Source of the DNA: Psammoneis japonica
Taxonomy: Eukaryota
Assembly: GCA_008632985.1 (NCBI GenBank)
Contig: QPGO01000212.1
Span: forward strand, 1 to 64,000
DNA length: 64,000 bases
Direction of reading: 5' to 3'
Numbering within the stretch: the first letter of the stretch is position 1; each line of letters opens with the position of its first letter. The position numbers were made by a program, and so were the translations under genes. The notes under the pieces were generated by a model. That model did not search any database, was not told where the DNA came from, and saw nothing but the letters and a program-made list of their open reading frames with translations. This document shows, piece after piece, positions 26,214 to 62,000 of this stretch.

Positions 26214-26272
26214 CCCACTGACATTAGTCTTGTCTCAGTGAGGAGACAATGGGCAGCATCGGAGATCCGAAG

Positions 26273-32300: not shown

Positions 32301-32990
32301 AGAGTGATTCAACTCAATGACATTTGTCGAAAGTCCAAAGCACCTTGCTGCCACAGCCACAGTTGCTGAATCATTGCTCACCCACTCATCCTTTGGAATT
32401 GAGAAAAACAAGCAAACAACAGCCAGTCTGACCCAAACTCCACATTGTTCACTTTACGACAACCGCAGCATTGCTTCATTCATTTGAGTCAAAAATGTCA
32501 AATGACAACAATGGCAGCACAGCACTGGCAGACAGTGCTCCAACTCATCACACTGACAACAGAGCACCCCCGCCACAGTTGGCATTTGTGTTGGGTAATC
32601 ATCATGGTGTCTGAAGCTGTGTTTGCAAGAATTCACGTGGAGAGTTTCCCCAAACAGGAAGAGCACATGACCTCCACATTTTGCTAAAGCTGGCTGAGCT
32701 GTGCAGCCTTTGAGAGACCAAGATGTGCCTGGCATGTGGTTGCAGTGGAAGCGAGCAAAAGACAATGAGCTTCCATGCCTTCCTGAGTGCCAGCAACCAG
32801 CAACACATGTGAGCTGCAGCTTGAAAAAGACCACATGGGACCTTGGTGCAAGTGCCTTGCAGCCGATTGGCACCACCAAGAGACAATCAAGCAACAGGGC
32901 ATGTTGTCTGCCAAAGAGCAGCCATCAATGCCAAAAGAGTCAGAAGAGCATGTGGCGTGAGAGCTCTGCTTTGACAGCACTCTGTGGAAG

Positions 32991-36983: not shown

Positions 36984-37432
36984 CCCGTTTGAGTTTTTTT
37001 GTTTTGCATTTTGAGTTCATTCACTTGCGCACTTGCCACAGTAGAGTGTGCTTCTATGTCTGACAGCAGCAACATCAACTCGCTCTTTCTCCAACACCGT
37101 TGGAGTTTTTTTTTTTTTTGAGTTGATGATGCCTCACTCATTCTCATGCGCGCTTCGCGCGCATTCGAGATCCATGATCCACACGATTAACTCACCATGC
37201 GCACCGCGCACGGGTGGATCTTTCTGATGCGGCTTTTTCAACGCCTGTGACGTCAGCTGCGACGACAGCCGTAGAAAAATGCCGATTTCGAATTTTTTAG
37301 CTCGAAAAACAGCCGACAACACTGATGAAGCGAAAGCAAAAGCTCACATCATCGAGCTTTGTATGTCAGGCAACTCTCAATAGATTGCTGTTACGCTGAA
37401 GGCTGTCAGCACATCAGACAACCCCGAAAACA
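36984..37432 (+). repeat. 5' pseudo-LTR
   Basis: Matches 41014-41455. Confidence 0.92.
37312..37371 (+). ncRNA. Hammerhead ribozyme, 5' copy with mutated core (GAAA to AAAA)
   Basis: Same fold as 41335-41394, but reads gcaaaagc instead of gcgaaagc. Confidence 0.6.
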
Positions 37433-37452
37433 GTGTGCACAGACTTCCAACA

Positions 37453-38916: not shown

Positions 38917-39059
38917 AGGCGAAACTCCTCTACCAACGCACCGAGCTCCCCATCAAAATTGCCGAGAAACAATCGGACCGCTGCTGCGTCAGAATCCATG
39001 GATTCACACCAAATCCTGATGCCCCCCTGTGGGAAAACGTAGCAACGGCTATCGGCAAG

Positions 39060-40931
39060 ATGAAAGCTACGGCATGCTTCAACCGCCTGGACAACATGTC
39101 TTACCACAACCTCTGTACAAAGCTGCAACCACCCCCGGGTACTGGATTACTGTTAGGACTTGGACACAAGTTTTGTATAGAATCAAGCACCCCGTTCCCA
39201 CACAACCGCCGAGGCGCACAACGCTTCCGACGAACCATACGTCTACGGAACTTTGTCGAGAACTCCGAACTCGTAAACGACGAAGACGGATACAACCCAC
39301 ACCTATACGTCCCCTCTGATTTCGACCCTCCACCGATTGAAGACGGGACAATAGAACTTCGAATGATGGACTTCGCAAACAAGATAGACAGAGCCAGTCG
39401 AACAGCCAACCGCCAACGACCCCGCTTTAATTTGACGCCTCAGCAGTATCGAACGCTGCGAACATTGCAAAACGACAGACGATTCGTCGTGTGTCTTACG
39501 GACAAGAATCTTGGTCCAGCCATCATGGAGCGCGAAGTATACATGAAACGGGCCCTCAGCGACCACCTGCTCAACCAGAAGAACTACCAACGCCACACGG
39601 AACAAGAAAAGAACACATTTATGAGAGCAACTAGAAGACGCCTACGCAACGCATACGACCTTGCAGCCGACAGCCTCTCTGAAGCGGAAAAAACTTACTT
39701 CGAAAGAAGTTTCAAAAAGAAACACCGCATACCACAGTTCTGCATCACTCCGAAAGTCCACAAAAAACCGTGGACGACACGACCAACAGTGAGCTGCATC
39801 AACAGTGAAAATGAAGTGTTTTCAAAATGGTTAGATTTCAAAATGAAAGAACTTCTACCCCCATCGCGAACGTACATCCGAGACTCTCACCAAGTCCTCG
39901 CCGACTTACGATCACTTGGAAAGCTGCCACCAGATGCTAAGCTATTCACAGTCGATGCAGTAGGAATGTGTGCCAATATCAACACCAACCATGCTCTGGA
40001 AACATTCCACCGGTGGTTCCTTGAGTACCCCGATGAGATACCAAAAAACTTCCCAGTTGACTTCTTCCTCACCGCACTGGAAATCGTCATGACAAGAAAC
40101 ATCATCCAGTTTGACGATACCTGCTGGCTCCAAATCGATGGTACAGCCATGGGAACCAGCACAGCCTGTATGTACGCCACCATGTACAAGGCTCTCCACG
40201 AACGCCAAAGTGTGCTAACCCGATTCAACTTGAACCTGCCCTATTATGGACGATTCATAGATGACGTACTCGGCGTATGGACAGGCGGTGAAGGTGAAAC
40301 ATGGGAGAAGTTCAAACATGAACTGAATAACTTCGGCACCTTGGAATGGGAAACCTCCGAGCTCAGTGACCAAGTTGTATTTCTGGATCTCGATATCAAG
40401 ATTGGAGCAAACCGGTGTGTTGAAACAAGAACGTACCAGAAGGCCATGAACCTGTACCTCTACATACCCCCAAGCTCAGCACATCCACCTGGAGTACTGA
40501 GAAGTATTGTGTATGGAAACCTTCGGACGTATCGGGCACAAAATCCAAACAACAAGGATTACCAAAAAACAGTGGCCCAGCTCTTCAACCGGCTGATAGC
40601 GCGAGGCCACAACAGAGAGTACCTCAAGAACCTCTTTGTGGATGCAGCCGCCACTGTCCACCGGAAAAAGGCCCCACGCTCCAATGTCGCTGACCCATCC
40701 AACACTCTTTTCTTTCACCAAGAGTATCACCCACGCGGGATAGCTCGCACTGAAATAAGAAGAGCGTATAAAAAAACCTGCGAAGGGCACAGCGGGTTCA
40801 ACCGGTTAGCAGTGGCGCACTCAAGACCCAAAAATCTAAGAGACGCCCTTATACGAACACCACTAAAGGAACCCAACAGGCAGCGTGCTTCAGATATTAT
40901 TAAAAAACTCTCTGATACACCGGAGCTCTGA
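39060..40931 (+). CDS. Penelope-type reverse transcriptase (no endonuclease domain)
   Basis: LGLGHKF, TDKNLG, PKVHK...RP, DAVGMCANI, QIDGTAMG, RFIDD, FLDLDI, YQK, SAHP and terminal RPKNLRDAL. The ORF stops ~25 aa later without GIY-YIG. Confidence 0.92.
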   Translation: MKATACFNRLDNMSYHNLCTKLQPPPGTGLLLGLGHKFCIESSTPFPHNRRGAQRFRRTIRLRNFVENSELVNDEDGYNPHLYVPSDFDPPPIEDGTIELRMMDFANKIDRASRTANRQRPRFNLTPQQYRTLRTLQNDRRFVVCLTDKNLGPAIMEREVYMKRALSDHLLNQKNYQRHTEQEKNTFMRATRRRLRNAYDLAADSLSEAEKTYFERSFKKKHRIPQFCITPKVHKKPWTTRPTVSCINSENEVFSKWLDFKMKELLPPSRTYIRDSHQVLADLRSLGKLPPDAKLFTVDAVGMCANINTNHALETFHRWFLEYPDEIPKNFPVDFFLTALEIVMTRNIIQFDDTCWLQIDGTAMGTSTACMYATMYKALHERQSVLTRFNLNLPYYGRFIDDVLGVWTGGEGETWEKFKHELNNFGTLEWETSELSDQVVFLDLDIKIGANRCVETRTYQKAMNLYLYIPPSSAHPPGVLRSIVYGNLRTYRAQNPNNKDYQKTVAQLFNRLIARGHNREYLKNLFVDAAATVHRKKAPRSNVADPSNTLFFHQEYHPRGIARTEIRRAYKKTCEGHSGFNRLAVAHSRPKNLRDALIRTPLKEPNRQRASDIIKKLSDTPEL

Positions 40932-41013
40932 TTCGGCGACTCCGTCGCGACGAGTCACCTCCGGTAAAAAACTCAAACGGGCCACCTGCCGCGCCACGGC
41001 GCTACGGCTTACG

Positions 41014-41455
41014 CCCGTTTTGAGTTTTTTTGTTTTATATTTTGAGTTTATTCACTTGCGTACTTACTACAGTAGAGTATGCTTCTATATCTGACAGCAG
41101 CAACATCAACTCGCTCTTTCTCCAACACCGTTGGAGTTTTTTGAGTTGATGATGCCTCACTCATTCTCATGCGCGCTTCGCGCGCATTCGAGATCTATGA
41201 TCCACACGATTAACTCACCATGCGCACCGCGCACGGGTGGATCTTTCTGATGCGGCTTTTTCAACGCCTGTAACGTCAGCTGCGACGACAGCCGTAGAAA
41301 AATGCCGATTTCGAATTTTTTAGCTCGAAAAACAGCCGACAACACTGATGAAGCGAAAGCGAAAGCTCACATCATCGAGCTTTGTATGTCAGGCAACTCT
41401 TGATAGATTGCTGTTACGCCAAAGGCTGTTGGTACATTAGACAACCCCGAAAACA
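41014..41455 (+). repeat. 3' pseudo-LTR, followed by a partial tandem copy at 41457-41530
   Basis: Matches 36984-37432; the last ~73 bp are repeated in tandem. Confidence 0.92.
41335..41394 (+). ncRNA. Type I hammerhead ribozyme
   Basis: gccgacaaca-CTGATGA-a-GC gaaa GC-GAAA-GCTC acatcatc GAGC-TT-tgtatgtcaggc. Core boxes are conserved, stems II and III pair perfectly, and stem I pairs with two bulged A. Predicted cleavage is after 41382. Confidence 0.8.
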
Positions 41456-41528
41456 ATGTATGTCAGGCAACTCTTAATAGATTGCTGTTACGCTAAAGGC
41501 TGTTGGCACATTAGACAACCCCGAAAAC

Positions 41529-44500
41529 AAGCTGTGGAGCAATCCACCATCCCACGCCTTGATGGCAAGCCAGCCCTCTTGTCTTGTTGCCCCTCATCCC
41601 CCCCTGGATTTTTGCGCCAGCTGCAGATCCCACTTGCAGCTGCACAAGGACACCAACTGGGAGTGTCAGATGCTGCTGCTGCTTGGGTGCAGCAGCATCA
41701 GCAGCCAGTGCCCTGAGCATGGTGGTGCAGGCTGGCGGTGTGTGTGTCCAGGGAAATGCCAGCACCAGCTCCCGTGACAACAAAGCCAACACCAGCTCCA
41801 GAGGCAATGCTGCCAGCAACCACAATGAGGGCAATGCCAACCCCAACGATGGACCTGGCAACAGCTCTTGCAGCCAAAGCACTGCTGCTGCCAACTCACG
41901 CAGCAGCCATGACAACTCTCACAGCAGCAGCAACAGCGGCAGCAGCAGCGGTGCCAGAGCCAAATGTGGGTTGCCAGTTTCTGGAGCCACATGAGTGCTC
42001 TGCAATGCCCTCACAGTGTTTGCGAAATGTGGCAAAGTTCACGTTCATCCAGTTGCCATTTTTAGCCTGGACACTGTGAACGAACAGCTTGGTGAGAAAA
42101 CTCACACAAGTGAACATGGTCACTTTGTCGTCTGGACTCTGAATCAAGCTGCAAAGAATTGCAGCATTGCATCTGGTTTGCTCCATCTGTGGCAAGCGTT
42201 TGGCCCTCCATTGCTGCCGCCACCATTGAATGCGATCATTTTTGAGACTGCAGTGCTCCACACAAACTTTTGTGGTGACACATGTGCCCAACTGCCCAAA
42301 CTTCATTTCTGCTTTTTTGTTCTGCCGACACCTGAACGATTTTTTCTTTGCCAAATTCATTTGGATGGGTGGCGGGTCCTGCACCACGGTTCTTCCAGTC
42401 ATTGATGTCTCCTTTTATGACTTGCTGCTGTTCTTCCTTTTCTTGTTTTCTGCCACCTCCCTTGCCTTTGCTTCCTTCTCCTCCTTCTCCTTCTTCCTCT
42501 CCTCTGCTGCAATTTTCTTCCTCCTTGCATTTTTTTCACCTTTTCTGCTGCGCCATCTCCTTGCACCTCCTGGCATCCACCTTTGTGTGGCAATCCGGCA
42601 TGTCTTGAACAGCTCCTTTCATCACAGCCCTTTTTGGTGGTTTTGATGGGGTTTTCATGGCTCGGCTGAAACTTTGGCAGCAGCCACAGCATTTGAAGGG
42701 TTGTCACAATCTTGATTTGCAAACTCCGCTTCAGAGGATGAGGAATCAAAATCCACACTTAACTTCTTTTTGTTTGCATCACTTCTCTTCACATGTGTGG
42801 GCTTGATGTTTTTGCTGCTGTTGCTGTTGTTTCTGCTTTGAAAGAATCCATCATCTGAGTCAGATTCACTCTGCGACACTGCCAATGATTCAATGCTGGG
42901 CTCCGTGTTTTTGGTGTCCTCTTCTGCCTGGTGCTCTGGATGCACAGCGGACAGTTCCTCTTCAGCTGCTTCATTGTTTGCCTGCCCCCCCTGATGCTTG
43001 TCATTCCCCTCTGACTTTCTGTCTTTGTAAGAAGTTGCTTTGTTGTCTGGTGGCTTGCCGTTGTCCCCCTCGCCCCCCTCATCAGAAGAATCTTTCTTCT
43101 GTTGCTTTGTCATCATCATCTTCATTGTTGTTGTTGTCATTGGTTTCCTCGTTGTCCTCCTCCAGTGCCTCCTCCTCCTCCTCCTTCTTTTTCTTCTATT
43201 CATCTTCCTTCTCTTCCTTGTTCTCTTCCTTTCCATGACACACAGTGGGGTCACTCGCTGCATCCTTGCAGTCTTGTTGTGTGCCCCCATCTTCATGCTG
43301 CAGATGTCCCAAAGGGTTGGGGTCAGGGTCAGGGTCAGGGTCAGGGTTGTGGGTTGGGGTTCAGGCAGTGGGCAAAGGCCAAAAGGCAAGGCCAAAGCAA
43401 AAGCAAAGCTAAGAAGGGAAAAGGAAATGGGAAAGGGGAAATGGGAATGAAATGCAAAACTGAAATCAGATGCAAAATAAATTTTGGTGAATGTTTGTAA
43501 AAATGAAAGAGAGAAATAAAATGCAGAAATGAAATGCACTGTGATTGATGCAGATGGAGATTGCAGCAAAGCAAGCAAGGAAGACACTTCAGAGAGGAGC
43601 TGACAAGTGTGAAACAACAGAAGAGTTGTCGTTGGTTTGAAGGATGGCGTTGTTGAGCTGCTGTTGGTTGGTGTCACCAAATGTTTCCATGGCTTGATGA
43701 CAGAAAGCCAGAGCTTTACAGCGTTCCTGATTGAGTGGCTCAGGAATGACATCATCCAGGCAGATGAAAAGCCTGAAGTGATGGAAGTGATTGAGGAATC
43801 TCATGCCAAGCTCAGCTGTGGTGACAGAGCTTGCTTCTTCTGGAGAGATCCCAATGGAGAGACTGGTGTGAAAGAGATCTTCAAGGTGTGCTGAGTTTTC
43901 AGATCCAACAGAGAAGCTGTCCAGGGCGTCCAACTCTGCGATGTCACCATGAAATTGACCAGAGACAAAATTGCTGAGGGATGAAGCAGGGAAGAAGTGC
44001 CCTGCAGGGCCATGAAGGAAGTTTGTCTCAGTGTTTCCAATGAGAGATGACCTGATGACAGAACAAGGAATGGAGTGGACCACTCCCTGTTTGCAGGTTT
44101 CAAGACAAAGCTCGAATGGAAAGTCATGCTTCAAAGGGTGTTTTGCTTCAGACTGCCAAAATGAATGAAAGAAAGCAAAGAGCTTGGCTTTGGAAGAAGA
44201 GTGTGGGCAAAGCTTTCTCTGTTTCTTGCAGAGCTTGCTGAAGCAAGAGGAGCAATTTTTCCTCATCTTCCTGTCCCACCCAACAGTGTGGACACAATCC
44301 ATCCATGACATGGAAGATGTTGGTGGCCATGGCTGTTGTTGTTGCCTCAGTGTCCTGAGAGAGAAAAATGCAGAAGTGAGGGTGAGCTGGAAATGTGGGT
44401 GTGTGCATCTGACAGTTTTATCCTTTTCGTGCTGTGTTTTGTTCTTTCCATGTTGCTCGGAGTGCAGCTTTGCTTCTCAAGGTGGCATCACGGGCGTGCC

Positions 44501-45522
44501 ACCCACTCAGCCTTTTTGTGCCACTGTGAATGCATTGACAGGATCTGGTGGGACTGTTGTGGGGCCTCCTGCAGACAATCAGGGAAACCAGTCCTCGACT
44601 GCTCCTTTGGGTGTTGAAGTTGCAAACAGTGTGCCGTTGCCAGTTGACGATTGCTCTGGTGGAACCAGTGCTGGAGGAAGTGCACCCCAGTGAGCAGACA
44701 ATGGTGTTGGCAAGTGTTGTTGCAAGGCATTCTGCCACTGTGCCAGATTGCACCACCACGGGGGCTGTTGTTGTTTTTGCACCACAAGGAATCAGAACCA
44801 AGACAGACCAAGGTCACGTTGTTGTTTTTGCACCAGCTGCAACGTTGCAGAATGAGAAAAAACAGACCTGGAGGTTTTGTGAAATGATGGTTTTACAGCT
44901 CGCTTGCAGCAGTTGCGACTGAAGATTTTAGATTGCTGTGATTGCAGAGTTGTTGCTTCTTGAGTTGAAGGAGCAGGCCCACAACTTCCACCACCACCAA
45001 CTTTTCGTGGAGCCTTTTGCACTTCAAGCTCTTCTCTGCCAAAATTCCTTGCTGGTGCTCTCCGAATTCAATGGCGCCAAAGTGACTGGAAGATGGATCT
45101 CAATGTGATGTCCTCATTGGGGGCACAAACAACTTCACCATTGCATTGTCAGCATTGGCCAGCAAAGTTGAAAGGTCTTTCTTTGATCCAAATGCTGGAA
45201 TTGTGCCCTTTGACTGCAATGGTGGCTTTCCTGCAAAGAGAATTTGACGAGCACACACAGAAGAACTTTTGTCGCTTTCAACCAGCCCACTTGCAACTTG
45301 CAACAGCAGATGGCACTCCAACAAAGTCCTTGCTTTTTTGTGCAGGTTTGAATTCCAACACACCGTCATTTCAGGTGCTGATTTCTGAAGTGCCCAATCT
45401 TGTGAGATGATTGTCCCACTGTCTTGCACGACATTCTCCAAAGCACCTGATCTTGCAAGATGATTGTCATCTCACTGTCCCACGCACTGTGCCCTCACTG
45501 TCCCGTGCATTGTTTGGAACGG
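41529..45522 (+). repeat. ~4.0 kb direct duplication, right copy
   Basis: Near-identical to 32991-36983. Confidence 0.95.
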
Positions 45523-47111: not shown

Positions 47112-50100
47112 CTCTTTGTTTACCACAGCGACACGCGCGAAATTTTTTTTTTTTGCGTGCGTTGAAACGGGGCCACCATCAACAACACAACAAATGGAAC
47201 GTCGCGGTTCCGAGTCATTACAACAGATAGCACCCCAACACCATACGGGGTGATCGTTAACACGGTAAGGTGTATTATGATAGCTTGGTTTGGTTTGTTG
47301 TTGCCTTGGCGTTGTTTTTTCACGTCGTATCTTACCTGCTGTCGTATCGGCATTTCTTGCATCACGACAGGCGTGACCGACCGACATTGACAGAAACGGT
47401 GTCGTCGTTTTCGGCATCCTACTGGCAGAATCTGGTGGAATAGTAAACAAATCGGTAAGAATACAACACAATGCTGTTGTTCTGTTGTATCAGAGTGTCC
47501 TTTTTCCCATTCAATATTCCCTCAGCTTACCCTTGCTCTTTTTGCTCTATTTTTTTTTCTTTTCAGTGCGAAACAACCGTCTTTCGCGGTGTTGGTAACA
47601 TGAGCGTCGGCAACATCATGGAGATAATGGACATCTCCATGCTTACGTTCAGTTCCGATGATACATCTATGGAGGACGCTGATTTGGAGTCCGGCGTTGC
47701 TCCCTTGGCCTCTGCTGAACAACCTGATGACGTGCCGGCACCAGCTCGGAGAGCGCCTCGTCAAACAAATTCTGTGGCCCATGATGATTGGATTGCAGGA
47801 CGATGTGTACTTTTTCATGTTGATGTGGAGCATGGAGGGAAGAAGTGTGGTATGCTGCAGCTCTCAGCTGTTGCAGTAGATCCAAATGACAAGTCTACAC
47901 TCGGCGAATTTGACGAGTACATCAAGCCTCCAGAAGGAACCAAGTGGACCGACGAGATGGAGAGGGCCTCCCAGGAGTCGCACAAACTCAAGCTCACTGA
48001 TCCCCGCATAGCCAATGCTGATAAAATAGAATTGGTTTGGCCAAGATTTTGCAAGTTTGTAGAAGATAAGTTGGATGTAGGCTCCAAGGTTGGGATTCTG
48101 GCGGCATGGGGAGGCAAGGGAGGTGATTGCGAGTACATGTTTCGTCTTACTGAAGACACCCATCGCAAAACCTTGTCCATGCCTGAAGGGCTGAAGTACT
48201 TTTATGACCCAAGGAAGACAATTGAGCACTACAAGTCCTGTGCCCTGAATGCCAAGACATCCAAAGTTGTTGGCTACAGCTTGGGAGAAATTTGGTGTCA
48301 TGTGAAGAACAAGGAGGTGCTTCCTGAAGCTCACTCTTCCATTGTTGATGCCAAGGCACAAGCTGATGTGGTGAATGACGATCGCCTCTTCAAATTTGTG
48401 GACAAAGGCAAGGGAATGGAGCTTCTGTCTGATGTTTGGGCTGCCAAGAGAAAGAAGAGAGAGCTGCTGGATTCCGAGCTTGAAAGGCCTGTTCCACCTG
48501 GGTGGGAGAATGAGGGGTCCTCTAATTGGGAACCTGGATGGTCTGGATCTTATGCAGGCCCTGGTGGAGGGGGTGTTTGTGGCCCATCATGGGCTGTGAA
48601 GCAAGCCTGCAAGTCTCTTGTTGACTTGTTTCTCTTCTTTGTCACGGTTGACGACTTAGAGGAGGTTGCCAAGGAGACCAACTTTCATGCCAACGAAGAG
48701 TGGGTCAGGCCTGTGACTGAGCAAGAGTGGCAACAAATTAAAGATCAGAATGAGCAAGATGAGGAGCATGGGCATGCAACCAACTGTGAGATTGTGGCTG
48801 ATTGTGATCAGTTGGAGCTGGATTTTGATTTGATGGAGCAAGGCAGCCGGGGCTTTTTCATGGACGATGGAGACTCCCTCTTTGGTGGATCAATTTTTGA
48901 CCCTGACAAGTGCAGCAGCAGCAGCAGCGCCTCTGAATCCAGTGACCAGTCCTCTCACTCCAGTGACGCTGACTCATCGTTTGGGACGCACGGGAGCTTT
49001 TGGACGGTTTCTGATGACGAGAGCTCTGTCTCCTCTTGCGATTCTTCCGACTGGTCTCTTGGCAGCAGCGAAGCCTGCAACTCAGATGATGAGCTTGGGG
49101 ATGAGTTTGAGGAAGAGCCCAAGAGGAGAGCCAGGTTGGTTCCATGTGAGGAGGACCACCCTGACAGCAGGAAGAGACACAAGGACAAAAAAAGCCTTGG
49201 ATCCAAGTCACTCCTGGGTTCCTCCTTGCTTGGTTTGGAGTTTTGTTTGTTCTGGCTGCAATGAAACTCCGGTGGCAAGACCTCCTGTGGATGGAAACTT
49301 ATGACTTGGCAGTGCCATGGATTCAGAACTCCATGTCTCGAAATGCCTTCACCCAGATTCGAAGATTCATCCATTTCGTCGACAACAGAAAGTTGCCAAG
49401 GCACGGCACTTCAAGACGGCACCCATTGCAGAAGATGATCCCATTTGTGAACAAAGTTGGCAAAAGGCTAAGGGCCGGGTGGGTGATTGGAGAGAAGCCC
49501 AACGGTTGATGAGTCCATGATTCTCTACAAGGGAAGGGCTGTAAAGTTTGTTCAACACATGCCCGCTAAACCCATCAAACACGGCATAAAAGTGTGGGCA
49601 TTGTGCTGCGCAGAAACCGGATATCTGTGTGCATTTTATGTCTACACTGGCAAGGACAATGATGATGCATCGCCACTCGAAGTTGTTTCAAGGTTGTTGG
49701 CTATGGACCCCGAACTGGTGTTGTCGGGAAAAGGACGCAAGCTGTACACCGACAATTTCTACACATCGGAACAGCTCATGAAACTGGTGTATGACACGTA
49801 TGGCATGTTGGTGGTGGGCACCGTGAAGATGACGAAAAAGAAGTCACGAACAGCAACCGACTTCCCCTTCCACAAACTGTCATCCGGAGCATTGTCCAAG
49901 GTGCCTCGTGGGTGGTTACGCTGGGCTCAGAAGACTGTGCAAGGAGACAAGAGCAATTCGGCTGGGTTTGTAGTACAGGCAACAACTTGGAAAGACAGAA
50001 AACAGGTTGGCGTGTTGCACAACCACATGGTGGGCGCACCTGGGGATCACAAAATGTTGCGGTGGGACAACAACGAGCACAGCCGAGTTCCAGTCTCATC

Positions 50101-51663
50101 CCATGCGGTCATCCCCGACTGTGTCAAGTTCATGCCTGCTGTCGACAGGGAAGACAGGGAGACTGCTGACTGGTCTGTCAGCTTGAAGGGAAACAGATGC
50201 TGCCTCTGCATCATGAGCTGCTGCATGGACGGGGCAGCTCACGCAATGAAAGTGACAACAAAGAAGCTCTCAACAGTGGGACACCCCTCTGAAAAACATG
50301 CCAAGACCACACGATGGAAGTTCAAGTGGGTGATGGATCTGGGAATGCAGTGCATCAACAAAGGCATTGGCATGGATTGGACAAACATTGACAACCCCAC
50401 CACAAAGCCAAAATGGGTCAGACAGAAGCCGTGTGCACCTTGTGGCTGTGGAGAATGCTTTTTCTGCAAGCACGGCCTCACGCATGGAAAGACTCATCGG
50501 CCAAAGAAAGGGAGAAAGAGACTTGTACGGGAAGAAGATATTGTGCACGACAAGAAAGCAATCAAGATACTGAACCATAGCAAAGACTGCATTGATTGCA
50601 TAAGGAAGGCCAGATTGACGATGCCAGATGCCGATTACGCTACCTTGAGAAAAGGAAGTCGTACATCTTTGTACGGCTGTAGGAAATGTGGTGAAGCAAT
50701 TTGCAAAGTGTGCTGGCCAGATTACGATCACCTAGGTCATATCAGGAACAGGTAGGCATTACATAAAACTTAGTGAGTGACAAAAACATAACTTGCTTAG
50801 ATGCCACAACATGACACAAGCTTACCTGCACCTATCTCTTTGAAGATGCCGGTGGAAAACCTCATGCACAATACCCATTGCCCAGTGTTCTTTCCAACTG
50901 ATGAATGATTGCTTTGTTGGTGTGTGTGCCCTCACCATTCCTTTAGCATCGGCACCGGTGCCTCAATCCGAGAAAAAAGTAACACTGTGATGCTACCAAA
51001 AATCCGAGAAAAAAGTAATGCTGTGATGCTACCACGGCACAATGGTATGCTCTCAATGAAATTCTTGGTGTGCGTACCCTCACCATTCCTTTGGCATCGG
51101 CCCCGGTGCCTCAATCCGGGAAAAACGTAATGCTGTGATGCTGCCACGGCATAACGGTATACTCTCAATGAATTCTGACTCTACAAGCAAACAATAGTAA
51201 GACAGATAATGTGCTCGTGTTAGTAAGTAATGCCAAGGCATTACATGAAATGCATTGAGTAAAAAAGAACAACGCGATAGATAACAATGTAACTTACATT
51301 GACACCTAAACAAAAGCATACTTCTTCTCGTTGGCCCCCCCACATTGGTGATTCATAGCCAGAATATTATCTGCAACAGCAGCAACAATAGCAACCTTAT
51401 GCATGTGAGCCAATTGCCGCAGAACAAACAGCAGCAACGACAGTAAGCATAAATATGAAATAAGAAATGGCGTTGGAAAGGGTGGAAATCACCCGCAATG
51501 GTTGTTCTGCCTCAACGGCGAAGAAATAACATCTATGCGGCTCTGTCGGGGTGCAGCGCCGATGATGTGATGGTGGGTTGTTGGCGATAGGTCGAGGGAA
51601 AAAAAACGGCCTCCGCGCACCGCGCAAAAAAATCCGCAGTAATCCGTTGTGGCAAACAAAGAG
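47112..51663 (+). mobile_element. piggyBac DNA transposon, full length
   Basis: TTAA at 47108-47111 and 51664-51667. TIRs ctctttgtttaccacagcg and (reverse complement) ctctttgtttgccacaacg. Internal transposase, with subterminal tandem repeats at ~50.9-51.2 kb. Confidence 0.95.
47600..50755 (+). pseudogene. piggyBac transposase with N-terminal DEDDh exonuclease domain; two frameshifts (~49190, ~49490)
   Basis: Transposase motifs LFLFF, MSRNAFTQIRRFIHF, VDESM, KPIKHGIK, YTDNFYTS, WKDRK, AVDREDR and a Cys-rich tail. N-terminal HVDVEH...GGD...AHSSIVDA. Confidence 0.88.
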
Positions 51664-53105: not shown

Positions 53106-54043
53106 AAATGGCAGCGTAGGTGTTGCCAGTTAAGTCCGGAGGTCGGGGCAAATCGAATGCGTGTCTCCGGCCTGGAGTCCATGTTACTCCTGTGTCTTTG
53201 ACCGTAGGAAGTTGCCTGTTCGCTTGACCCGTCAGGTCACGGCTGTTGAAACAGACAGCAGCATTCGCCTGTGAAGCAGCAAAAGCTCGCCAAGCAGATC
53301 ACACCGTTGACGGAACGCGGGGTTTGGGGTTCCGTCGTATCAGTGACGTGGTGCGGTAAGTCTTCACTCGTAGGGAGTGTTGATTTAGCACGCGGTTGAC
53401 TCGCAAGTTTCTCTTGCTGTCTCCGTAGTACGTCCCCCCTTTTTCATTTTTTGGGATGGTTTTCCACCCCAAAAATAGGAAAAAGCTTGAGCTCCATCAT
53501 TTGATGGTGCTCTTGAGGCAATGTTATCCTACGCGACCAATTTCTATCAACTTTTGATGTTGGCGTGTTTCAGATATTCGAAACACACTTTGAACTTTTA
53601 CAATAGAGAAGTAGAAAGACTAAAAGTACCAGATAGCAATCTATATTTGCGTGTAATTTATTCCGTGCGCATGTCAATGGACTACGATGGCGGTCGTAGC
53701 ATGTTCTCGTTCTCGGCCCTCGTGCTCCATCGTCACGTCAAACACAAGGATTGTGGCGTACAGTACAGCGTACACCGGAGATTTTCAGTCACGTCGCGCT
53801 TGTGTGCCTTGTAAGATAAGGTGTCACCAGAACGCTTTGTTTCGACAGAGTCTGTCAGAAGTAATTTGTCCGAAGAATGGACAGGTGTATCATCCTCGAT
53901 TGGATAGAGTGGTTGACCGTTCATATAGCAAAACACAACACAACCTAGAAATTAATCGTATGCATCCGAAGCCTTCATTCTACTAAGCATGTAGAGGTGC
54001 CAATCAGGACTCTTAACTCATGAGCGCGTGTGCACCACTGCCC

Positions 54044-55714
54044 CTACTTGGACTCTTGTGGTTTGTCCACCCACCCAATAGACCGGTCAATTGCCTTGCC
54101 CCACGAATGCTTGAGCTCCGTTCGAGTGTCATCCGATATGTCAGAAGAAAAGGTACAGTCGTCTTCCCAAAGTTCCTTGATATCATCTAGCGAGTCCCAG
54201 ACACCGGCTGATAAACCAGCGGCGTAGGCGGCTCCGGCAGCGGTAGTTTCAAGACTACTTGGGCGAAGGACTTTGGCTCCCAAGATATTGGCCAAGAATT
54301 GCACAAATTCAGAGTTGGCGGCCATGCCGCCATCTACACGAAGTTCTGAAACGGGAACTCCCGAGTCAGCGGCCATGGCGTCAAACACCTCGGAGCACTG
54401 AAATGCTGCCGCCTCTATTGCTGCTCTTGCAATATGTGCCTTGGTATGATAGGCGGTGAGTCCAGCAATAATTCCACGTGCACTCTCCTCCCAGTGTGGA
54501 GCCAGTAAGCCAGCAAAGGCGGGGACAAACCGCACCCCGCCAGCGTCATCGACGGAAGATGCCAAATCTGCAATGTCTTTGGCGCTGTCACCGAACTGCA
54601 AGTTATCGCGGAGCCATTGAACAAGCGACCCTGCCATGGCAACAGCACCTTCAAGAGCGTAAACTGGTGGTTCTCCCTTGATTTGGTAAAAGGGAGTCGC
54701 CAGGAGTCCACGTTCTGAAATTTGCGGTTTCTCCTGCGCACCCATATTCATCATGAGAAAGGCTCCAGTTCCGAACGTAGCCTTAGCTTCTCCCACTTGA
54801 AAGCATGCTTGACCAAACATTGCAGCATGTTGGTCACCAAGATTAGCTCCAATGGGTACACCTTCCAACTCTGGGCACGATACTACAGTCCCAAAATTGC
54901 CGCCTACGGAAGGTTCAATGGCTGGCAGCATGGATCTGGGAATATCAAAGGTATCGAGGAGCTCATCGTCCCACTCGAGTGTCGTCAAGTTGCAAAGCAA
55001 AGTCCTCGCCGCATTTGTCACATCTGTCACATGCTTTTCTCCACCCGTGAGCTTGTACAAGAGCCAAGAATCAATTGTTCCAAACAGCGCTTGACCGTCA
55101 CGGGCCTTGCCCTCTAAGCCGTCCACATTGTCAAACATCCAACGCAGCTTGGTCGCCGAAAAGTAGGTAGAAATGGGAAGCCCCGTTTTGGAAAGTAAGG
55201 CATCTTTTCCTCCCAGGCTCTTGCAGTAGTCAGCAACAAGTCCCGCAGTTCGTCCACAATTCCAAACAACAGCCGGACACAGTGGCTCTCCCGAATCCTT
55301 GTCCCACACGACGGTTGTCTCCCTCTGATTGGTAATTCCAATGGACGCGACTGAACTGCTCGTAACGTTTGCTTTAGCGAGTGCATCCGAAATACACCGT
55401 GCAGAATTGTCCCAGATCTCAGAGGCGTCGTGTTCGACCCATCCGGACTGAGGATAATACTGTTTGTGCTCGCTCTGAGAAGAGGAGACGGGCTTGCCAA
55501 ACCTGTCATACAGAATAAAACGCGTTGACGAAGTCCCTTGATCAAGGGATCCGACGTATTGCTCTGACAAGCCAGCGGAGAAAGATCTCTGCCATTTCGA
55601 GCCAAACACTCCAAGATCCCTACCATTGATGAGAGCACGAGCAGCAAGCCGATTCGACCCACGAGAAGTCGGGGCGACAAAAAGAGTGTCAGCCAAGAAG
55701 AAGGCGGATCGCAT
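54044..55714 (-). CDS. glpK: Glycerol kinase with N-terminal extension (possible organellar presequence)
   Basis: LDQGTSSTR, GWVEHD, GITNQRETTVVW, YFSATK, GTIDSWL, TDVTNAART, GDQHAA, FVPAFAGLLAPHW, LRVDGG and ETTAAGAA. Intact; first ATG at 55714. Confidence 0.96.
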   Translation of the reverse strand: MRSAFFLADTLFVAPTSRGSNRLAARALINGRDLGVFGSKWQRSFSAGLSEQYVGSLDQGTSSTRFILYDRFGKPVSSSQSEHKQYYPQSGWVEHDASEIWDNSARCISDALAKANVTSSSVASIGITNQRETTVVWDKDSGEPLCPAVVWNCGRTAGLVADYCKSLGGKDALLSKTGLPISTYFSATKLRWMFDNVDGLEGKARDGQALFGTIDSWLLYKLTGGEKHVTDVTNAARTLLCNLTTLEWDDELLDTFDIPRSMLPAIEPSVGGNFGTVVSCPELEGVPIGANLGDQHAAMFGQACFQVGEAKATFGTGAFLMMNMGAQEKPQISERGLLATPFYQIKGEPPVYALEGAVAMAGSLVQWLRDNLQFGDSAKDIADLASSVDDAGGVRFVPAFAGLLAPHWEESARGIIAGLTAYHTKAHIARAAIEAAAFQCSEVFDAMAADSGVPVSELRVDGGMAANSEFVQFLANILGAKVLRPSSLETTAAGAAYAAGLSAGVWDSLDDIKELWEDDCTFSSDISDDTRTELKHSWGKAIDRSIGWVDKPQESK

Positions 55715-56439
55715 ACTGGAGCCAGCGTTATGCACTTTGTAAAACACTGTATGGTAATACGGTATTACAGAAGTGTTATGAACAGCAGCAAAGACACAGC
55801 AAATTAGCGTCACTCCCGACACAATAACACAAACAACACGCAATAAAAGCAACACGACGCTGGATCGCGAATCGCCAAAAAATGAGACGGAATCTTTGAA
55901 TCCTTCGACTGCTACCGGTAGTAGAGACTACTGTACTCCTCCCTCTACCGGTGCTCTATGGTAGAGAACGCGGCGCTCTCTCTATCTAGAGTAGCTACTC
56001 TATCTACTAGCTAAGAGTAGAGTAGAGCTGAAGGTAGCAGGCAGGCCTCTCTCTAGCAGAGAGCACCCAGCTAGAGCATGCCCTCCAAGTGATTGCGCAA
56101 ACTGCTCTGGAGCAGAGGCGAAACAAAGTCCAGCGATTTGGTGAGAATGCTGGGTGAATGTGGTGTAGATTCCAGTCAGTTAGTTCCAATTGTTTGGAGA
56201 GATTGAGAGAGAACTGAGAAGAGTTTTTGATGAGTCTACAAACAAGAGTTCGTCTCGGCTCTCCGTCACCACCGCCAATCAACAAAGAGTGTGTTTGATC
56301 CAACCAACCGTTGGCACGAAAGGATGAAGTTTTGCAACAAGAAACAATGATGCGCACTCAGCGACGTTGTGCAGCACAGCAGAGACAACGTCTCATGTGG
56401 GCTCAAATCCCAGAAGAGGCGGGTTTCCACATCACACTG

Positions 56440-57100
56440 ATCACCATCTTTTAGAGTCACTGCCTCCCAAAACTTCCTGTGACACATCATGTGATGCACT
56501 CGATTCAGTCAAAGAGTTCAGTGTGTCTTGACTGCGGCTGTTGCTGCCAGCAGACGTCGGGACCCCAGTCACGTGGACACCTCCTGTGCCGTTGCCTCTT
56601 GTTCTTGAGGACTGGGATTCTTCAACAAAATGGTGGTTGTGCACCTTGGGGCCAATGATCAAGCACACACTTGACACGGCAAACACCCAGATGAGCAAAA
56701 CACACACGACACACCTTGCCTCTGACGATTGCGAACACATGTGGCATCGACACGAAGAGAACCTGGAGATGCAACACAGTCAAAGAAAAAATCCAAGAGG
56801 ACTCTGAACACTTGCTCTCCACATCTTTTGTTTTCCACGCCATGTGTGCCATGAGGACAGTGGGGATGGCAACAAGAATCAAGAGGGGAATCGTCATTCC
56901 TGGCATTTTCTCGCGGGTGTCGCACTGGCCAATCGACTCCCCTGTGAAGTCATCCACACAATGGCGATCCCAGTCCAAACCACCCATGGCAGTCCACACT
57001 GACAGCAAGATGACAGTTGACAACACGACTGCAATGGAGGGCCAAACAACATGCTTGTCTTGTGCTCGGGTCCTTCGAAACTGAAGTGCCTTGTTTGCAC
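56440..57100 (-). pseudogene. Class C (GABA-B-like) GPCR 7TM C-terminal remnant
   Basis: TM helices with AWKTKDVESKCSESSWIF and LIIGPK motifs; frameshifted and TpA-depleted. Confidence 0.65.
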
Positions 57101-57317
57101 GCCAGAGCTGGGCTGTTGGAAATGGTGAATTAAAAGTTCAAACACCGAAATTAGATGGCGTGAAGAAGACGCACGTGTCAGCGCTCATGTGCTCCACGTG
57201 AAGCAAGAAAACAGCCGATGGAAGCAGTCATTGTTCTCTTTTGGCTGTTGTAATTTATCCTTCTGGTGACCATTCCAGAGTCACCTCAGTCCTCCAAGGT
57301 CTGATCCTGAGGCTAAA

Positions 57318-58776
57318 GAGAGATGGACGAATCAAGTCAAGGTTGTGTGCAAACGGAAGCACGCAACGAGAGCACATGGACCGAGATGAAACCGCCAGTC
57401 TGACAGCACCCACAGAATCTGCTCTCATTGCAGGAGTGATTGATGCCAAGCAAGGCAGAGACGTCATGACAGCGGACATCTCGAGCGCATTTGTGCAAAC
57501 GGACATCGAGGTCAAGGATGAAAAGATCATCATGAAGATCCGTGGAAGGATGGTGGACATGTTGCTGGAATTGGGTCCAGACACTTGCCAGGACTGCATC
57601 GTGTGCGAAGGCAAACATGAGGTTCTCTGTGTTGAAATGTTGAAGGCACTTTGCGGAATGCTGGTGTCCTCCATTCTTCACCACAAGAAGCTCCGCAGAG
57701 ACATCGAAGGAATTGGGTTTGAGATCAATCCTTGTGATCCATGTGTCGCCAACCACACTGTGAATGGAAAACATCACACGGTGACATGGCATGTGGACGA
57801 TTTAAAGTCCAGTCACGTTGACAGCAAGGTCAACAATGAATTCAAGATTTGGTTGGACAAAACTCACACGGATGAGATCGGAAAGGTCAAAGTCACGCGT
57901 GGAAAGAGGCGCGACTGTCCAGCCATGACTCTAGATTGCTCCATTCCAGGAGCACTGCAAGTTGACATGGTGCTTTGTGTGCAAGGAATGGCCAAGGAGT
58001 TCTTCAAGGAATTCCCAGAAGAATTGTCGGGTGACGTGGATTGCCCGTGGAGCGAGAAGCTCAACAAGGTGGATGAGACAGCCAAGAAATTAGATCTCAA
58101 GCGTGCTCGAGCATTTTGCACTTTTGTGATGAAGGGCATGTTTGTGTGCAAGAGAGCCAGACAGGACATTCAGCTTGGCACTGCTTTTCTCTCCACCAGG
58201 GTCAAGGATCTGAACGAATCGGATTGGCCAAAGCTGGCGAGGCTCATGAATTTCCTCAGGACCCAGCTTGATGTCGCAGTCATGTCGGCTGGAGACAAAG
58301 TCATCATCGAGTGGCACACGGGTGCCGCATTCGCAGTCCATCCGGACCACAAAAGTCACACAGGTTCTGCCATGACCCTTGGAAAAGGTGTCATTACATC
58401 AGTCAGTGCGAAGCAGAAGATCAACACCAGGAGTTCTACAGAAGCAGAGATCGTCGCAGGAGACGATGTTTTGGCAAAGGTCCTTTGGACCAAGCGTTTC
58501 ATTGAAGCTCAAGGTTTTGAAGTCGAGCGTAACATCATGCATCGAGACAACCAAAGTTGCATGAAACTAGAACAAAACGGAAAGGCCAGCTCGGGCAAAT
58601 GCACGAGACATTTCAACATCAAGTGTTTTCACATCACTGACCTCATCAAGCGAGGAGAACTCGAGATTGAGTTCTGCCCAACAGACAAGATGATGGCAGA
58701 TTACATGACCAAACCAGTGGTTGGTAAAAAGTTCATTGTTGATCGTCAAGCCATCATGAACATCCAAAGTGCCTAA
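57318..58776 (+). pseudogene. Copia RT + RNase H (5'-truncated, open frame)
   Basis: KRDGRIKSRLCANG, ADISSAF, KALCGML, WHVDDLKSSH, HPDHKSHTG, SSTEAE, DNQS and ADYMTKP. Confidence 0.92.
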
Positions 58777-58827
58777 GATGGTCAAATTTGGAAATGGCAA
58801 GAATCTTGTCATTGGCCAGCAGGAGTG

Positions 58828-59065
58828 TGTTTTGGAAATGGTGAATTAAAAGTTCAAACACCGAAATTAGATAGCGTGAAGAAGACGTACGCGTCAGCGC
58901 TCATGTGCTCCACGTGAAGCAAGAAAACAGCCGATGGAAGCAGTCATTATTCTCTTTTAACTCTTAGAAAGTATTGTGAACAAGCTTGTCTATTTTAGCC
59001 TCAGGATCAGACCTTAGAGGACTGAGGTGACTCTGGAACAGTCACCAGAAGGATAAATTACAACA
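58828..59065 (+). repeat. 3' LTR (TG...CA, 238 bp)
   Basis: Follows the PPT, begins tgtt and ends aaca; both ends have homologues at 57.1-57.3 kb. Confidence 0.85.
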
Positions 59066-62000
59066 CAGGCAGGCAAGAGACGAGAAAATGTTGTAAGACA
59101 TGTGCCCCAAACCAATCTCAACTGTGCACAGACACCATGTGTCATTCTGACAATGGCATGGTGTTGAGTCCAAATGTTCTGGAAATGGCCTGAGATGGTC
59201 AGATTTAAGTTTCTGCCATTGGTCATTTTTAATCAGCACTCACTGGACAACTGATCTAGAATATTCTCTGCTTAAACATGTGATGTCTGTTTTTATGTGA
59301 TTGCCACCTGTTTTTCACCTCAATTTTTGAAGCGATTTGGTCTCGGTTCTTTTGTTGGAGGAGGCCACCATTGTCATTCACAGTTTCCAAGTCGGCATTC
59401 GTGAAGCGTTTAATTGAACGCTTCGCTGAACGGCTGTGTCTCGTTGTCTTCACAACTGCAATGAAAAGAAAACAATCGAAACTGACAGTCACGATTGTGT
59501 CATTGTCACATTTTTGTAAAATTCTCAGAGTGGAGAATCGCAAGTCTCTTGAAATCGCTTAAAAAACAACCTAAAGCGCTTTTACGCTTGCAGTTTTATG
59601 TGAAAACGCAGAGCACGTGGCAAGACACACGGCCCTGAGCCGCATGACAGGATCAGCGTCAGACACCCTAGCAAAGATGCACAAGAGCAGGTAAGAACCT
59701 GAAGAGGAACAAAGTTTGCTTGTGATCTCATACACAAACATGAGGAAAAGCAAAAGAGTCTGATGATGAACAGACCAACAAAAACGCTGCAAGGGCAACT
59801 GAAGATTCGGTGAGGGCAATGTCGAAGACTGTGGAGATAAGGAATTTTGCTGCAAACATAAAACACAGTTTCTCAAGTTCTACGTCTAACATGAAAAGTG
59901 CCTGAACTGATGAGGGCAGCTTGCCTGAAAGAAGTTGCAGTGGTAGAATCGCGCGCAAGCGTGGAATCACCCACCTTCAGGTGACCCAAACGTCTGTGCG
60001 ACAACCACTGCCAGTGAATGACGTAGTTTCAGCAACCGAGCCGTTTGGTTCTTGCTAACAACTAAGTTCTATTTGGTCTCTACGATGTTTTGATGAATTC
60101 TCCATCTCGAACAGCCGAGTCTTTCTTGCGTGCTTGGATGGTTCTTCGTCGCTTACAATCCCTCCCAAGGGCCTTGGAGATATATGCTGAGTTATAACGT
60201 GGAGACGCAGCATGAAATGGATTGCTACATCCAATTGAATAACGCAGGAAGACACTTGCTGCATCGCCAAAATGTGCCTGCAACATGAGGGACTTTATTC
60301 TGTGGTTCTTGACTAACAATCCGGACTTAGTCAAAAAGTTGCCAGGGTTTAAAGTTTTAAGGCGTGAAATTTTGCAAAAGGTCTTAAGATGAACAAAGTC
60401 TTCAAATTAATTTATGTTGAAGATGAGCAAAATATTTAAATTAGCAAGACACAACAGATGTAAGAGCATCTTCGCCAGTGAGTCGTAAACACAATCGTAA
60501 ATATAGGAACATAACCTAAAAGGACAAGCGAACAGACTGCCCCGTATAAGTTTACGTACGATTCTGCACGCTACCATCATTTTCAGTCGATCACAATCGT
60601 ATTCACATTCGGCCGATGGTTGGGCAGACGTTGAGATAATAAGCAACCACATACACGTATATAAATGATTAACTGGTGGTAGGACGGACTTGTCAAATAT
60701 TGCATGACGCCATGGCGGCTTTGAACGCAATGTACGACACAAATCAAGTCTATTCAAAGATATGTCGATGTCTATCGATAGAGAATAATTCATATTATAC
60801 GTCTATGTGTTACTATGTTGTGAAAATCATTCTACATCGCGAAAACAAGCGAAATGTTATTACATGATTTATGTCTTATTCTCTTTTGACCCCATAAACC
60901 CCCCATATGTCCGTTCTCCTACCATATCTCGATGCGGTCGTATGTAAGTTCATAAGATACGACAAAGTGTTAATTGTTGGGCCTCTGTAAGGTCCTCTCA
61001 TCAAGAAAGCGTCGATTTGTCGTTTCGTCATGGTGACACGCACTTTCTACAGGATTTCTACATCCTTTTTGTACCGGAAATTTACGATTTTCGTTTACGA
61101 TTCTGGAGGTGGATCATATCCAAGGCCTGATTTGTGATTCGCTTTCACGAATCGTAAATTCGAAAAGGGTTATTAGCGCAAAAAGTATGTTTTTTTGCAA
61201 AAGATCCTAAGATGAGCAAACTGGATATAGCAACATTGTGGGCATTATTTAGAGTGGACAAACGCAAATATTGTTTCCCATGTGGTCGTCGAGGTGGGGT
61301 GAATGAGAATCTTTCGAAAATGACGCCACAGTGAGTGATTGGGGCTAACGACTTTTCGAGATGTCAATTGAAATGCTATTTAGGGTTCAGAATCAATCCA
61401 TCACTGTGACAAATTGGGTCCCATTCTAGCTGAACTGGGCAAGTTTGCAAGGCTCTTACCACTCTTGAAGCCTTTTTTGGTACAAATCATCCCATCACTA
61501 CAGGTAAGAGTAAGTCTTTGTGGAGTGTCGCAAGGCTCTTGAGATTTGTCAAGCAGTCTTAGGCGACGAACATTCCGACCTCGCCGCAATGAATTACAGA
61601 GCAAAATTCAATGTATTAGTGCTGTCACACCTCGGCCCAGCACATCCGGCAAAAGTCCTCCCATATTTTATTCTAAGATTTATATGTAAGAACCTATTTG
61701 AACAGTCCAGACGGGTTTCCATTGTCACTGTGGTTTCTGCACTGTATAATATGAGAAATAAAAAGCTGATTGTTCGCATAAGTAAAAGAAGGTTTAAAGT
61801 AGATTACCTTGTCATTTCTCATCTCAAGATTTTTCTACGAACGAGTTAGACCGCGCGAATTTACACCCCAAAATTGCAGCCGATTTTCGCACGAGTACGA
61901 GAGTGTGAAATTTTTTGACATCTGTAATTCTGCGAGCAGTGATAAATTCATTGAATAAATACTCCTTGAATATTGAAATGACTAAATCAAAACACCATGG

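Follow-up and report, generated by a model that had tools for sequence, protein, structure and literature searches.

The window analysed here, a stretch of 64,000 nucleotides (64 kb) of a Psammoneis japonica contig (QPGO01000212.1, positions 1 to 64,000), contains a Ty1/copia-type reverse transcriptase (RT)-RNase H fragment, in the open reading frame (ORF) 57202-58776, whose conserved tyrosines have almost all been replaced by cysteine or histidine. It is very probable that tyrosines of transposons were lost here through mutation of TpA to TpG or CpA in chromosomal DNA after insertion, with a preference for T-A-Y (Y, pyrimidine), in a regional manner and independently in separate copies. Over the whole window, the observed/expected ratio (O/E) was 0.28 for TpA and 0.63 for CpG, and reached 1.48 and 1.46 for TpG and CpA, respectively. 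In 2-kb bins, TpA O/E was 0.02-0.2 in the repeat blocks (1-10, 18-37, 42-46, and 56-58 kb) versus 0.5-0.7 in the gene blocks. ORFs located in the depleted blocks, where CpG O/E was 0.14-0.7, contained 0-1.5% Tyr, 1.3-8% Cys, and 2.2-7% His, and the host genes of the window had a normal Tyr content (3.5% for an FTO-like gene and 2.2% for a glycerol kinase gene).

Tyrosine Codons and Stop Codons in the Copia ORFs

ORF 57202-58776 contains 2 Tyr, 19 Cys, and 19 His residues, and its RVT_2 score in a Pfam scan (30.4 bits) was below the cut-off (31.6). A search of a large protein collection returned 1321 matches. The 120 homologues listed among them were 50-63% identical to the ORF over about 93% of the query, 109 of the 120 contained PF07727, and the named sources were the diatoms Nitzschia, Epithemia, and Attheya. 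An all-against-one HMMER comparison agreed, aligning the ORF with the C-terminal RT-RNase H part of full-length copia polyproteins. These matches and this alignment identify the ORF as a dead RT-RNase H copy of Ty1/copia type, truncated at its 5' end. It lies in the nuclear genome of a diatom, the neighbouring glycerol kinase ORF being closest to Odontella aurita and Eucampia antarctica (Table 1). The element is incomplete and comprises the RT-RNase H part only: tblastn of 269 copia proteins against the 64-kb window gave no match outside 57253-58777, and the fragment is bordered by 127-bp direct repeats, not by long terminal repeats (LTRs). These repeats differ at four sites, three of which are of the TA-versus-TG/CA type. 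In read contigs, the unit 57042-59147 was found at a summed depth of 900-2800, i.e., 25- to 80-fold, and the RT region thus belongs to a multi-copy family. The dead fragment, flanked by 127-bp repeats instead of LTRs and present at high depth, seems to owe its amplification to something other than retrotransposition of its own.

To locate the replaced residues, the ORF was aligned with 60 of the 120 listed homologues, and a position was called consensus Tyr when at least 60% of them carried this residue. At the 18 positions so defined, the ORF has Cys at nine (all TGY codons), His at seven (all CAY codons), Phe at one, and Tyr at one. Seven of the 18 sites were invariant (Tyr in 60/60 homologues) and all seven were replaced, suggesting that this RT copy is probably inactive. 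Residues of other types were retained at 287 of 365 conserved positions (Fisher p = 2.3e-10 versus Tyr). None of the 120 listed homologues was poor in Tyr (minimum 2.57%, median 3.69%). The ORF contains 0.38% Tyr, 3.63% Cys, and 3.63% His, and the homologues 3.72%, 1.09%, and 2.28%, respectively.

These data bear on an original prediction, made from the letters of the DNA, that tyrosine had been erased from the transposon proteins of this stretch while their frames stayed open. The five motifs it had quoted are all consensus-Tyr sites (KALCG at 151, NPCDPC at 178, VLCVEM at 143, IKCFHITD at 475 and 477, and IMHRDNQS at 447), and replacement by Cys or His (16/18) prevailed among the consensus Tyr positions, as it had anticipated, other residue types being kept as described above. 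Native Cys or His at the Tyr sites was not seen among the 60 aligned homologues. Since the homologues hold Tyr where the ORFs have TGY or CAY, protein conservation gives the change its direction, from TA to TG or CA, as had been argued. Its 485-aa stretch, taken from 57319, does contain a single Tyr (TAC at 58702), the other Tyr of the ORF being upstream of the start it had chosen; that start, 57318, was one base out of frame. Its explanation of the Cys/His-rich ORFs by loss of Tyr agrees with the alignment, in which homologue-Tyr positions account for 10 of the 19 Cys and 7 of the 19 His; judging from the sequence, CpG decay (Arg to Cys, His, or Gln) also contributes to the excess. In contrast, HVDD could not be maintained as a mutated YVDD: at 57790, in the copia RT, HVDD is native, with His in 60/60 homologues, and the HVDD-bearing ORF at 2997 (+) was not identified as an RT by Pfam, protein atlas, or PDB sequence searches.

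A second Tyr-poor pol ORF had also been reported, as 24255-26213 and 652 aa. This ORF is real, with 0.2% Tyr, but it extends over 24255-26234 on the minus strand and encodes 659 aa. At 12 consensus-Tyr columns defined with 34 homologues, it has 7 Cys, 4 His, 1 Met, and no Tyr, and 9 of 22 conserved Arg are now Gln, Cys, or His.

The use of stop codons also differed. When 37 low-TpA and 19 normal 1-kb bins of the window were compared, the frequencies of stop triplets per 1000 were 2.34 (TAA), 1.67 (TAG), and 22.84 (TGA) in the low-TpA bins versus 9.78, 7.88, and 18.99 in the normal bins, TGA thus representing 85% versus 52% of all stops, a shift in usage toward TGA that the original prediction had proposed to look for. 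The mean stop-free run was 35.7 codons versus 25.7, and ORFs of at least 100 aa numbered 41.6 versus 21.1 per 10 kb. An enumeration of codons, within and across codon boundaries, showed that TA>TG/CA gives a stop solely from an existing stop (TAA>TGA) and CpG decay solely from CGA. Existing stops are turned by TA>TG/CA into TGA, Trp, or Gln, and no new in-frame stop arises. Long Tyr-free, Cys/His-rich frames are therefore expected, because the change removes TAA and TAG and creates no in-frame stop. The contrast drawn earlier with repeat-induced point mutation (RIP) was thus justified by codon logic, TpA being destroyed and not created. The idea that removal of stops explains the dense ORFs was supported, with a caveat: ORF density doubled, but total stop density fell by only about 27% because TGA rises.

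Target Specificity, Timing, and Independence of the Mutations

Tyr loss was also found outside the window. A public protein, P0408, contains no Tyr in 549 aa, and the same signature was seen in another, P0419. With P0408 as a query, 80 public metagenome loci of another copia family were recovered from several assemblies, with 63-73% DNA identity to the window. Whole-locus TpA O/E ranged from 0.01 to 0.78 across them (13 loci at or below 0.35, 9 between, and 58 at or above 0.5), the extreme case being contig L001 (5.5 kb, TpA O/E 0.01). Among 30 full-length matches, 46 sites had TA in the majority of sequences. At these sites, L001 has TG at 25, CA at 18, TC at 3, and TA at none; L002, L010, and L040 were intermediate, and untouched copies retained TA at 87-91%. 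With whole loci (20 sequences, 188 majority-TA sites), L001 showed TG at 86, CA at 67, and TA at one, and two untouched copies retained TA at 136 and 155. L001 contains no TAA, 4 TAG, and 261 TGA; four of its ORFs, 605, 552, 434, and 408 aa long, lack Tyr altogether. At sites mutated in both of two copies, the outcome was the same in 77 of 136 cases (57%), near the 50% expected under independence, showing that the copies were mutated independently of each other. GC content rose as TpA fell (0.536 in L001 versus about 0.48 in untouched copies; Spearman -0.36 across the 80 loci). CpG O/E in L001 (0.69) was as in untouched copies, and depletion of TpA and of CpG co-varied weakly across the 80 loci (Spearman 0.40).

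Two additional observations were made in this family. In L033 and L073, TpA depletion shifts abruptly in mid-contig, for which a domain edge within the element or a chimeric assembly could account. TG outcomes on the coding strand exceeded CA outcomes in the five mutated copies L001, L002, L008, L010, and L040 (279 versus 228, binomial p = 0.026).

The change depended on the dinucleotide. Calculated per target A with both strands counted, the A>G rate in L001 was 0.48 at TpA versus 0.05 at ApA, 0.09 at CpA, and 0.06 at GpA. It was about 0.04 in 24 untouched copies, and A>C/T at TpA in L001 was 0.04. The value of 0.48 corresponds to saturation, because one mutation destroys the site. In four partly mutated copies, the rate varied with the 3' base (TAC 0.47, TAT 0.47, TAA 0.20, and TAG 0.18), and the base 5' of the T mattered little (0.33-0.42). 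A runs test gave no evidence for clustering along these four copies (P 0.38-0.82), and hence none for tract-wise action. The same hierarchy was observed in the window: survival of TpA in depleted relative to normal bins was 0.039 for RTAY, 0.148 for sites with TAY on one strand, and 0.366 for YTAR (chi-square p = 2e-17). The near-complete loss of Tyr follows because the preferred target, T-A-Y, is the Tyr codon. At 27 polarised Tyr sites in the window, which are sparse, no preference for a flanking context was shown. Both strands were affected, as judged from Cys/His ratios of 9/7 and 7/4 in the first and second copia ORFs and from the TG/CA ratio of 86/67 in L001.

Pairs of repeats in the window were then informative about timing. 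The minus-strand copia element (~22.8-28.7 kb) that carries the second ORF has a putative LTR pair with 24 mismatched bases: 18 fall in 9 TG|CA swaps, 2 are TA-versus-TG/CA differences, 1 is a CG-versus-TG/CA difference, and 3 are transversions, so that 21 of the 24 are TG|CA swaps or TA- or CG-versus-TG/CA sites. LTRs of one element are identical at insertion. A 450-bp repeat pair (93.6% identical) shows 12 TA-versus-TG/CA differences, for each of which the right copy is the one with TA, and no change in stretches rich in CpG. Two control repeat pairs located in DNA of normal composition differ mostly by transversions (11/16 and 9/13 differences). These comparisons show mutation, on both strands, of chromosomal DNA after insertion. 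The copies of a 4-kb direct duplication showed 8 mismatches, none of the TA type, and were therefore copied once TpA was exhausted. These duplicates bracket a 4.5-kb insert that is itself bounded by the 450-bp repeats, and only its left half is depleted in TpA; TpA is normal throughout the right half (39000-41500), and the boundaries, near 39000 and 41500, are abrupt. The 4-kb unit contains an ICLDD motif at 35224 and 43762, which could be a mutated RT Y-x-DD box. No Pfam family was found in this unit at E <= 0.001, and the ORF containing ICLDD, 34117-35262 (-), had no PDB sequence match.

The domain around the RT ORF also has a sharp left edge (~56190-56240), which lies just beyond the TA-rich DNA upstream of the glycerol kinase gene. 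Read depth is single-copy over the first ~400 bp of this domain, and a contig assembled from a public run, which may be the source sample of this assembly, covers 55762-56593 at a depth of 34 with 0 differences from the window. The unique flanks are likewise covered by public-run contigs at a depth of ~35 with 0 differences. Over a 7-kb stretch in these contigs, transitions accounted for 173 of 231 variant places; at 57618-57619, for example, the window has TG and other copies have CA.

Proposed Process, Rival Explanations, and Known Systems

So far, TpA hypermutation of foreign DNA has been the subject of one report, a 2026 preprint on a rhizarian alga, and our data add a second major lineage. 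The main text of that preprint describes mutation-accumulation lines of the chlorarachniophyte Bigelowiella natans with two hypermutable regions; of the 231 single-nucleotide mutations found in them, 230 were A>G or T>C, and these 230 all lay at TpA (Mettrop et al., bioRxiv 10.64898/2026.01.13.699255). The regions are an integrated giant virus and a virophage, mutated at about 1000 times the background rate in some lines only; TpA-depleted coding sequences were enriched in reverse transcriptase and DDE domains, and an ADAT2-like adenine deaminase was proposed (bioRxiv 10.64898/2026.01.13.699255). As in B. natans, the changes found here are A>G/T>C near-exclusively at TpA, yield TpG and CpA according to strand, and fall in local regions of foreign origin with a patchy distribution. 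The host here, however, is a diatom (stramenopile), the targets are LTR retrotransposons and whole blocks rich in transposable elements, and saturation is deeper (O/E 0.02-0.1 versus 0.45 in the B. natans giant-virus insert), although the diatom case is known from sequence comparison and not from rates followed in real time, the graded series of copies being at most an indirect hint of such rates. The 3'-pyrimidine preference, the loss of Tyr, and the absence of new stops are described here and not in the main text of the preprint, in which diatom, tyrosine, stop codon, and trinucleotide gave 0 matches, although its supplements may hold context data (bioRxiv 10.64898/2026.01.13.699255). Literature searches naming diatoms did not find the TpA signature described for this group, a further search gave no work on TpA-specific A>G hypermutation, and a term search in passages of Maumus et al. 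2009 (PMC2806351) returned no mention of hypermutation or tyrosine. What is new here is the T-A-pyrimidine target, which is the Tyr codon, and a process unable to create in-frame stops.

In the process that we propose, TpA becomes TpG or CpA, i.e., A>G on one strand or the other, in DNA and after insertion, with A before a pyrimidine (T-A-Y) being preferred; this specificity, the direction, the timing, and the independence between copies are shown by the data. The action is regional, affecting transposon-rich, CpG-depleted blocks and sparing neighbouring genes, and continues until TpA targets run out, separate copies being affected independently. Mutated elements retain long open frames, Tyr-free and rich in Cys and His. 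We infer that the agent is an enzyme with a role in defence against mobile or foreign DNA, and that it would be directed by the silenced state of a domain more than by membership of a sequence family. The simplest agent would be a DNA adenine deaminase producing inosine, to which we give an even chance. The U-A step has its counterpart in tRNA anticodon loops, where U33-A34 is what TadA/ADAT2 naturally act on, and the target of TadA itself is U-A-C. A bolder proposal, which we hold tentatively and rate below an even chance, is a dedicated genome-defence DNA adenine deaminase of diatoms, plausibly derived from TadA/ADAT2, that would convert T-A-Y to T-G-Y in silenced mobile DNA to exhaustion of its targets and inactivate elements by missense with their frames left open ("reverse RIP"). 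Since a chlorarachniophyte shows the same signature, such a system would be of ancient origin and occur widely across the SAR supergroup (stramenopiles, alveolates, and rhizarians).

Several points weigh against the explanation by post-insertion TpA mutation. The process is deduced from fixed differences and not from new mutation events, the preference for T-A-Y is about 2.5-fold and not absolute, and a TG|CA swap taken alone fits a TA ancestor or a CG ancestor alike. Across 1-kb bins of the window, loss of TpA goes together with loss of CpG (Spearman 0.76), and one common cause, for example a chromatin state, is inseparable from dedicated targeting. The exhaustion of TpA in the 4-kb duplicates predates their copying, and since the RT fragment is multi-copy, with 5 variant places inside it among those listed, much of its mutation may predate the last duplication. 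As for the metagenome family, its host is deduced from named relatives only (Nitzschia and Pseudo-nitzschia), repeat contigs from metagenomes can be chimeric, and a mild strand bias toward TG over CA is seen in the pooled five copies, which may not be fully independent.

The TpA signature itself could also be produced by another chemistry. A>G in T-A-Y and T>C in R-T-A on the opposite strand are, in formal terms, one and the same change, so that motif data cannot separate adenine deamination from a modified thymine of R-T-A (of the 5-hydroxymethyl- or 5-formyl-uracil type) or from biased mismatch repair. Dinoflagellate DNA contains hydroxymethyluracil preferentially at TpA and TpC, and 5-formyluracil promotes A:T>G:C transitions, which counts for thymine modification. 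However, A>I deamination is the more direct chemistry, was also proposed by the authors of the B. natans study, and fits the U-A context of TadA/ADAT2; we thus regard the thymine and repair alternatives as unlikely, though deserving attention. A deamination linked to N6-methyladenine (6mA) was rejected as a leading idea: the site of 6mA in eukaryotes is ApT, not TpA, and ApT O/E was only mildly low in the window (0.66-1.17 in 2-kb bins).

Other explanations fare less well. Under one of them, retrotransposon RNA would undergo ADAR-like A-to-I editing, and reverse transcription would fix the edits ahead of integration. This would agree with the preference of ADAR for U before the edited A and with its action on repeat-derived double-stranded RNA, both noted in the Discussion of the B. 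natans preprint (bioRxiv 10.64898/2026.01.13.699255). Such RNA editing is nevertheless very improbable, because LTRs identical at insertion now differ mainly by TG|CA swaps, which excludes editing before integration, and both strands are affected about equally. Moreover, the depletion reaches single-copy flanking DNA and a piggyBac-type DNA transposase ORF (TpA O/E 0.38), and the 3' preference observed is for a pyrimidine versus the 3' G of ADAR. A general AT>GC pressure in repeats, for instance GC-biased gene conversion among copies, would account for the rise of GC with TpA loss. Yet A>G in L001 at ApA, CpA, and GpA stayed near the untouched level, and this confinement of A>G to TpA excludes a general pressure; gene conversion is also unable to remove TA sites common to all copies, and we find this explanation extremely improbable. 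Finally, modified bases cause systematic base-calling errors in some long-read assemblies, and a sequencing or assembly artefact, a natively Tyr-poor lineage, or an unusual decoding might be invoked. However, the region was reproduced by the public-run contigs (with the reservation that the run may be the source sample), the signature occurs in separately assembled metagenome contigs and in P0408 and P0419, and both the host genes of the window and the 120 listed homologues are normal in Tyr. The probability of an artefact or of such a lineage is practically negligible.

Post-insertion mutation of TpA can also be set against better-known systems. Like RIP in fungi (Neurospora and others), it strikes mobile or repeated DNA in a local burst, through transitions at a single dinucleotide that affect both strands, with copies hit independently and coding capacity destroyed. 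RIP, however, changes C>T at CpA, creates TpA and stops, and lowers GC; here TpA is destroyed, stops are not created, and GC is raised. Unlike homology-triggered RIP, it leaves most loci of a family untouched, 58 of the 80 metagenome loci, possibly from more than one host, keeping the TpA O/E of at least 0.5 given above. As in the editing of retroelements by ADAR or APOBEC, deaminase-type transitions accumulate in copies, and for ADAR there is a U/T 5' of the edited A. Those enzymes, ADAR working on RNA and APOBEC turning C into U in cDNA, act ahead of integration and on a single strand, whereas the LTRs here diverged after integration, on both strands, and non-retroelement DNA was also affected. 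The decay of CpG through deamination of 5-methylcytosine, known from silenced transposons, likewise gives TpG and CpA, occurs in the same blocks, and explains the changes of Arg to Gln, Cys, or His, but it cannot alter Tyr codons, and TpA was lost with CpG intact in 37000-39000 and in L001.

These results have several implications. Diatoms are ecologically dominant, and the signature is present both in the assembled genome of one of them and among environmental contigs. The graded series of copies can be used for study, and the T-A-pyrimidine motif constrains the enzyme. Mutated elements escape domain searches, as seen for RVT_2, yet yield long Tyr-free, Cys/His-rich ORFs that gene callers take for proteins (P0408 is one); false genes of this sort can be flagged simply, by Tyr content and TpA O/E. 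If a natural DNA adenine deaminase with a defined context does exist, it would be of interest for base-editing research, and a reverse-RIP system, if real, could be identified from a comparison of genomes that show the signature with others that lack it.

Features of the Window

The coordinates of the features are listed in Table 1.

Table 1. Features of the 64-kb window discussed in the text. Assignments were made from sequence comparisons; positions are those of the window.
Feature	Coordinates	Strand	Remarks
Stop-to-stop ORF, 524 aa	57202-58776	+	Degenerate, 5'-truncated Ty1/copia RT-RNase H; ends with TAA
TpA-depleted domain around the RT ORF	56200-58800		0-3 TpA per 200 bp (200-bp profile)
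127-bp direct repeat, left copy	57116-57242		Flanks the RT fragment; TG, CA, TG versus TA at three sites of the right copy; TG versus CG
127-bp direct repeat, right copy	58832-58958		Less mutated copy; at the edge of the depleted domain
Second copia ORF, 659 aa	24255-26234	-	GAG-pre-integrase/integrase part; 0.2% Tyr; TpA O/E 0.05
Putative 3' LTR segment of the minus-strand copia element	22837-23042		88% identical to 28493-28698
Putative 5' LTR segment of the minus-strand copia element	28493-28698		From repeat-pair comparison
450-bp repeat, left copy	36983-37436		Lost 12 TpA that the right copy retains; CpGs intact
450-bp repeat, right copy	41013-41459		Normal TpA, O/E 0.69-0.80
4-kb direct duplication, copy 1	32988-36983		99.7% identical to copy 2; TpA O/E 0.02-0.07
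4-kb direct duplication, copy 2	41526-45522		Partner of 32988-36983
Left half of the insert between the 4-kb duplicates	37000-39000		TpA O/E 0.07-0.35 in 7/8 bins; CpG intact, O/E 0.57-1.28
Glycerol kinase ORF	54044-55927	-	Neighbours the RT domain; closest to Odontella aurita (67%) and Eucampia antarctica (61%)

Most ORFs of the repeat regions could not be assigned to a family. A Pfam scan at E <= 0.001 gave no match for 11 of the 16 repeat-region ORFs scanned, and in a wider scan at E <= 1, 10 of 15 ORFs remained without a family, the other five showing weak matches below curated cut-offs.

An FTO homologue (N6-methyladenine demethylase family) is encoded by an intron-free ORF of 623 aa, 14030-15901 (-), located between two TpA-depleted blocks. 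It matched FTO_NTD (E 3.6e-80) and FTO_CTD (E 1.4e-29), with the Tyr content given above and a TpA O/E of 0.49. The piggyBac-type transposase ORF, 49487-50755 (+), was recognised by DDE_Tnp_1_7 (E 6.4e-20); it has 2.6% Tyr and may be a partly mutated or younger DNA transposon. In the glycerol kinase region (54000-55700), run X2 contigs, and part of those from run X1, depart from the window at about 2-4% of bases (13/745 and 27/705), mostly through transitions, which suggests that the sample also contains a second haplotype or a close relative.

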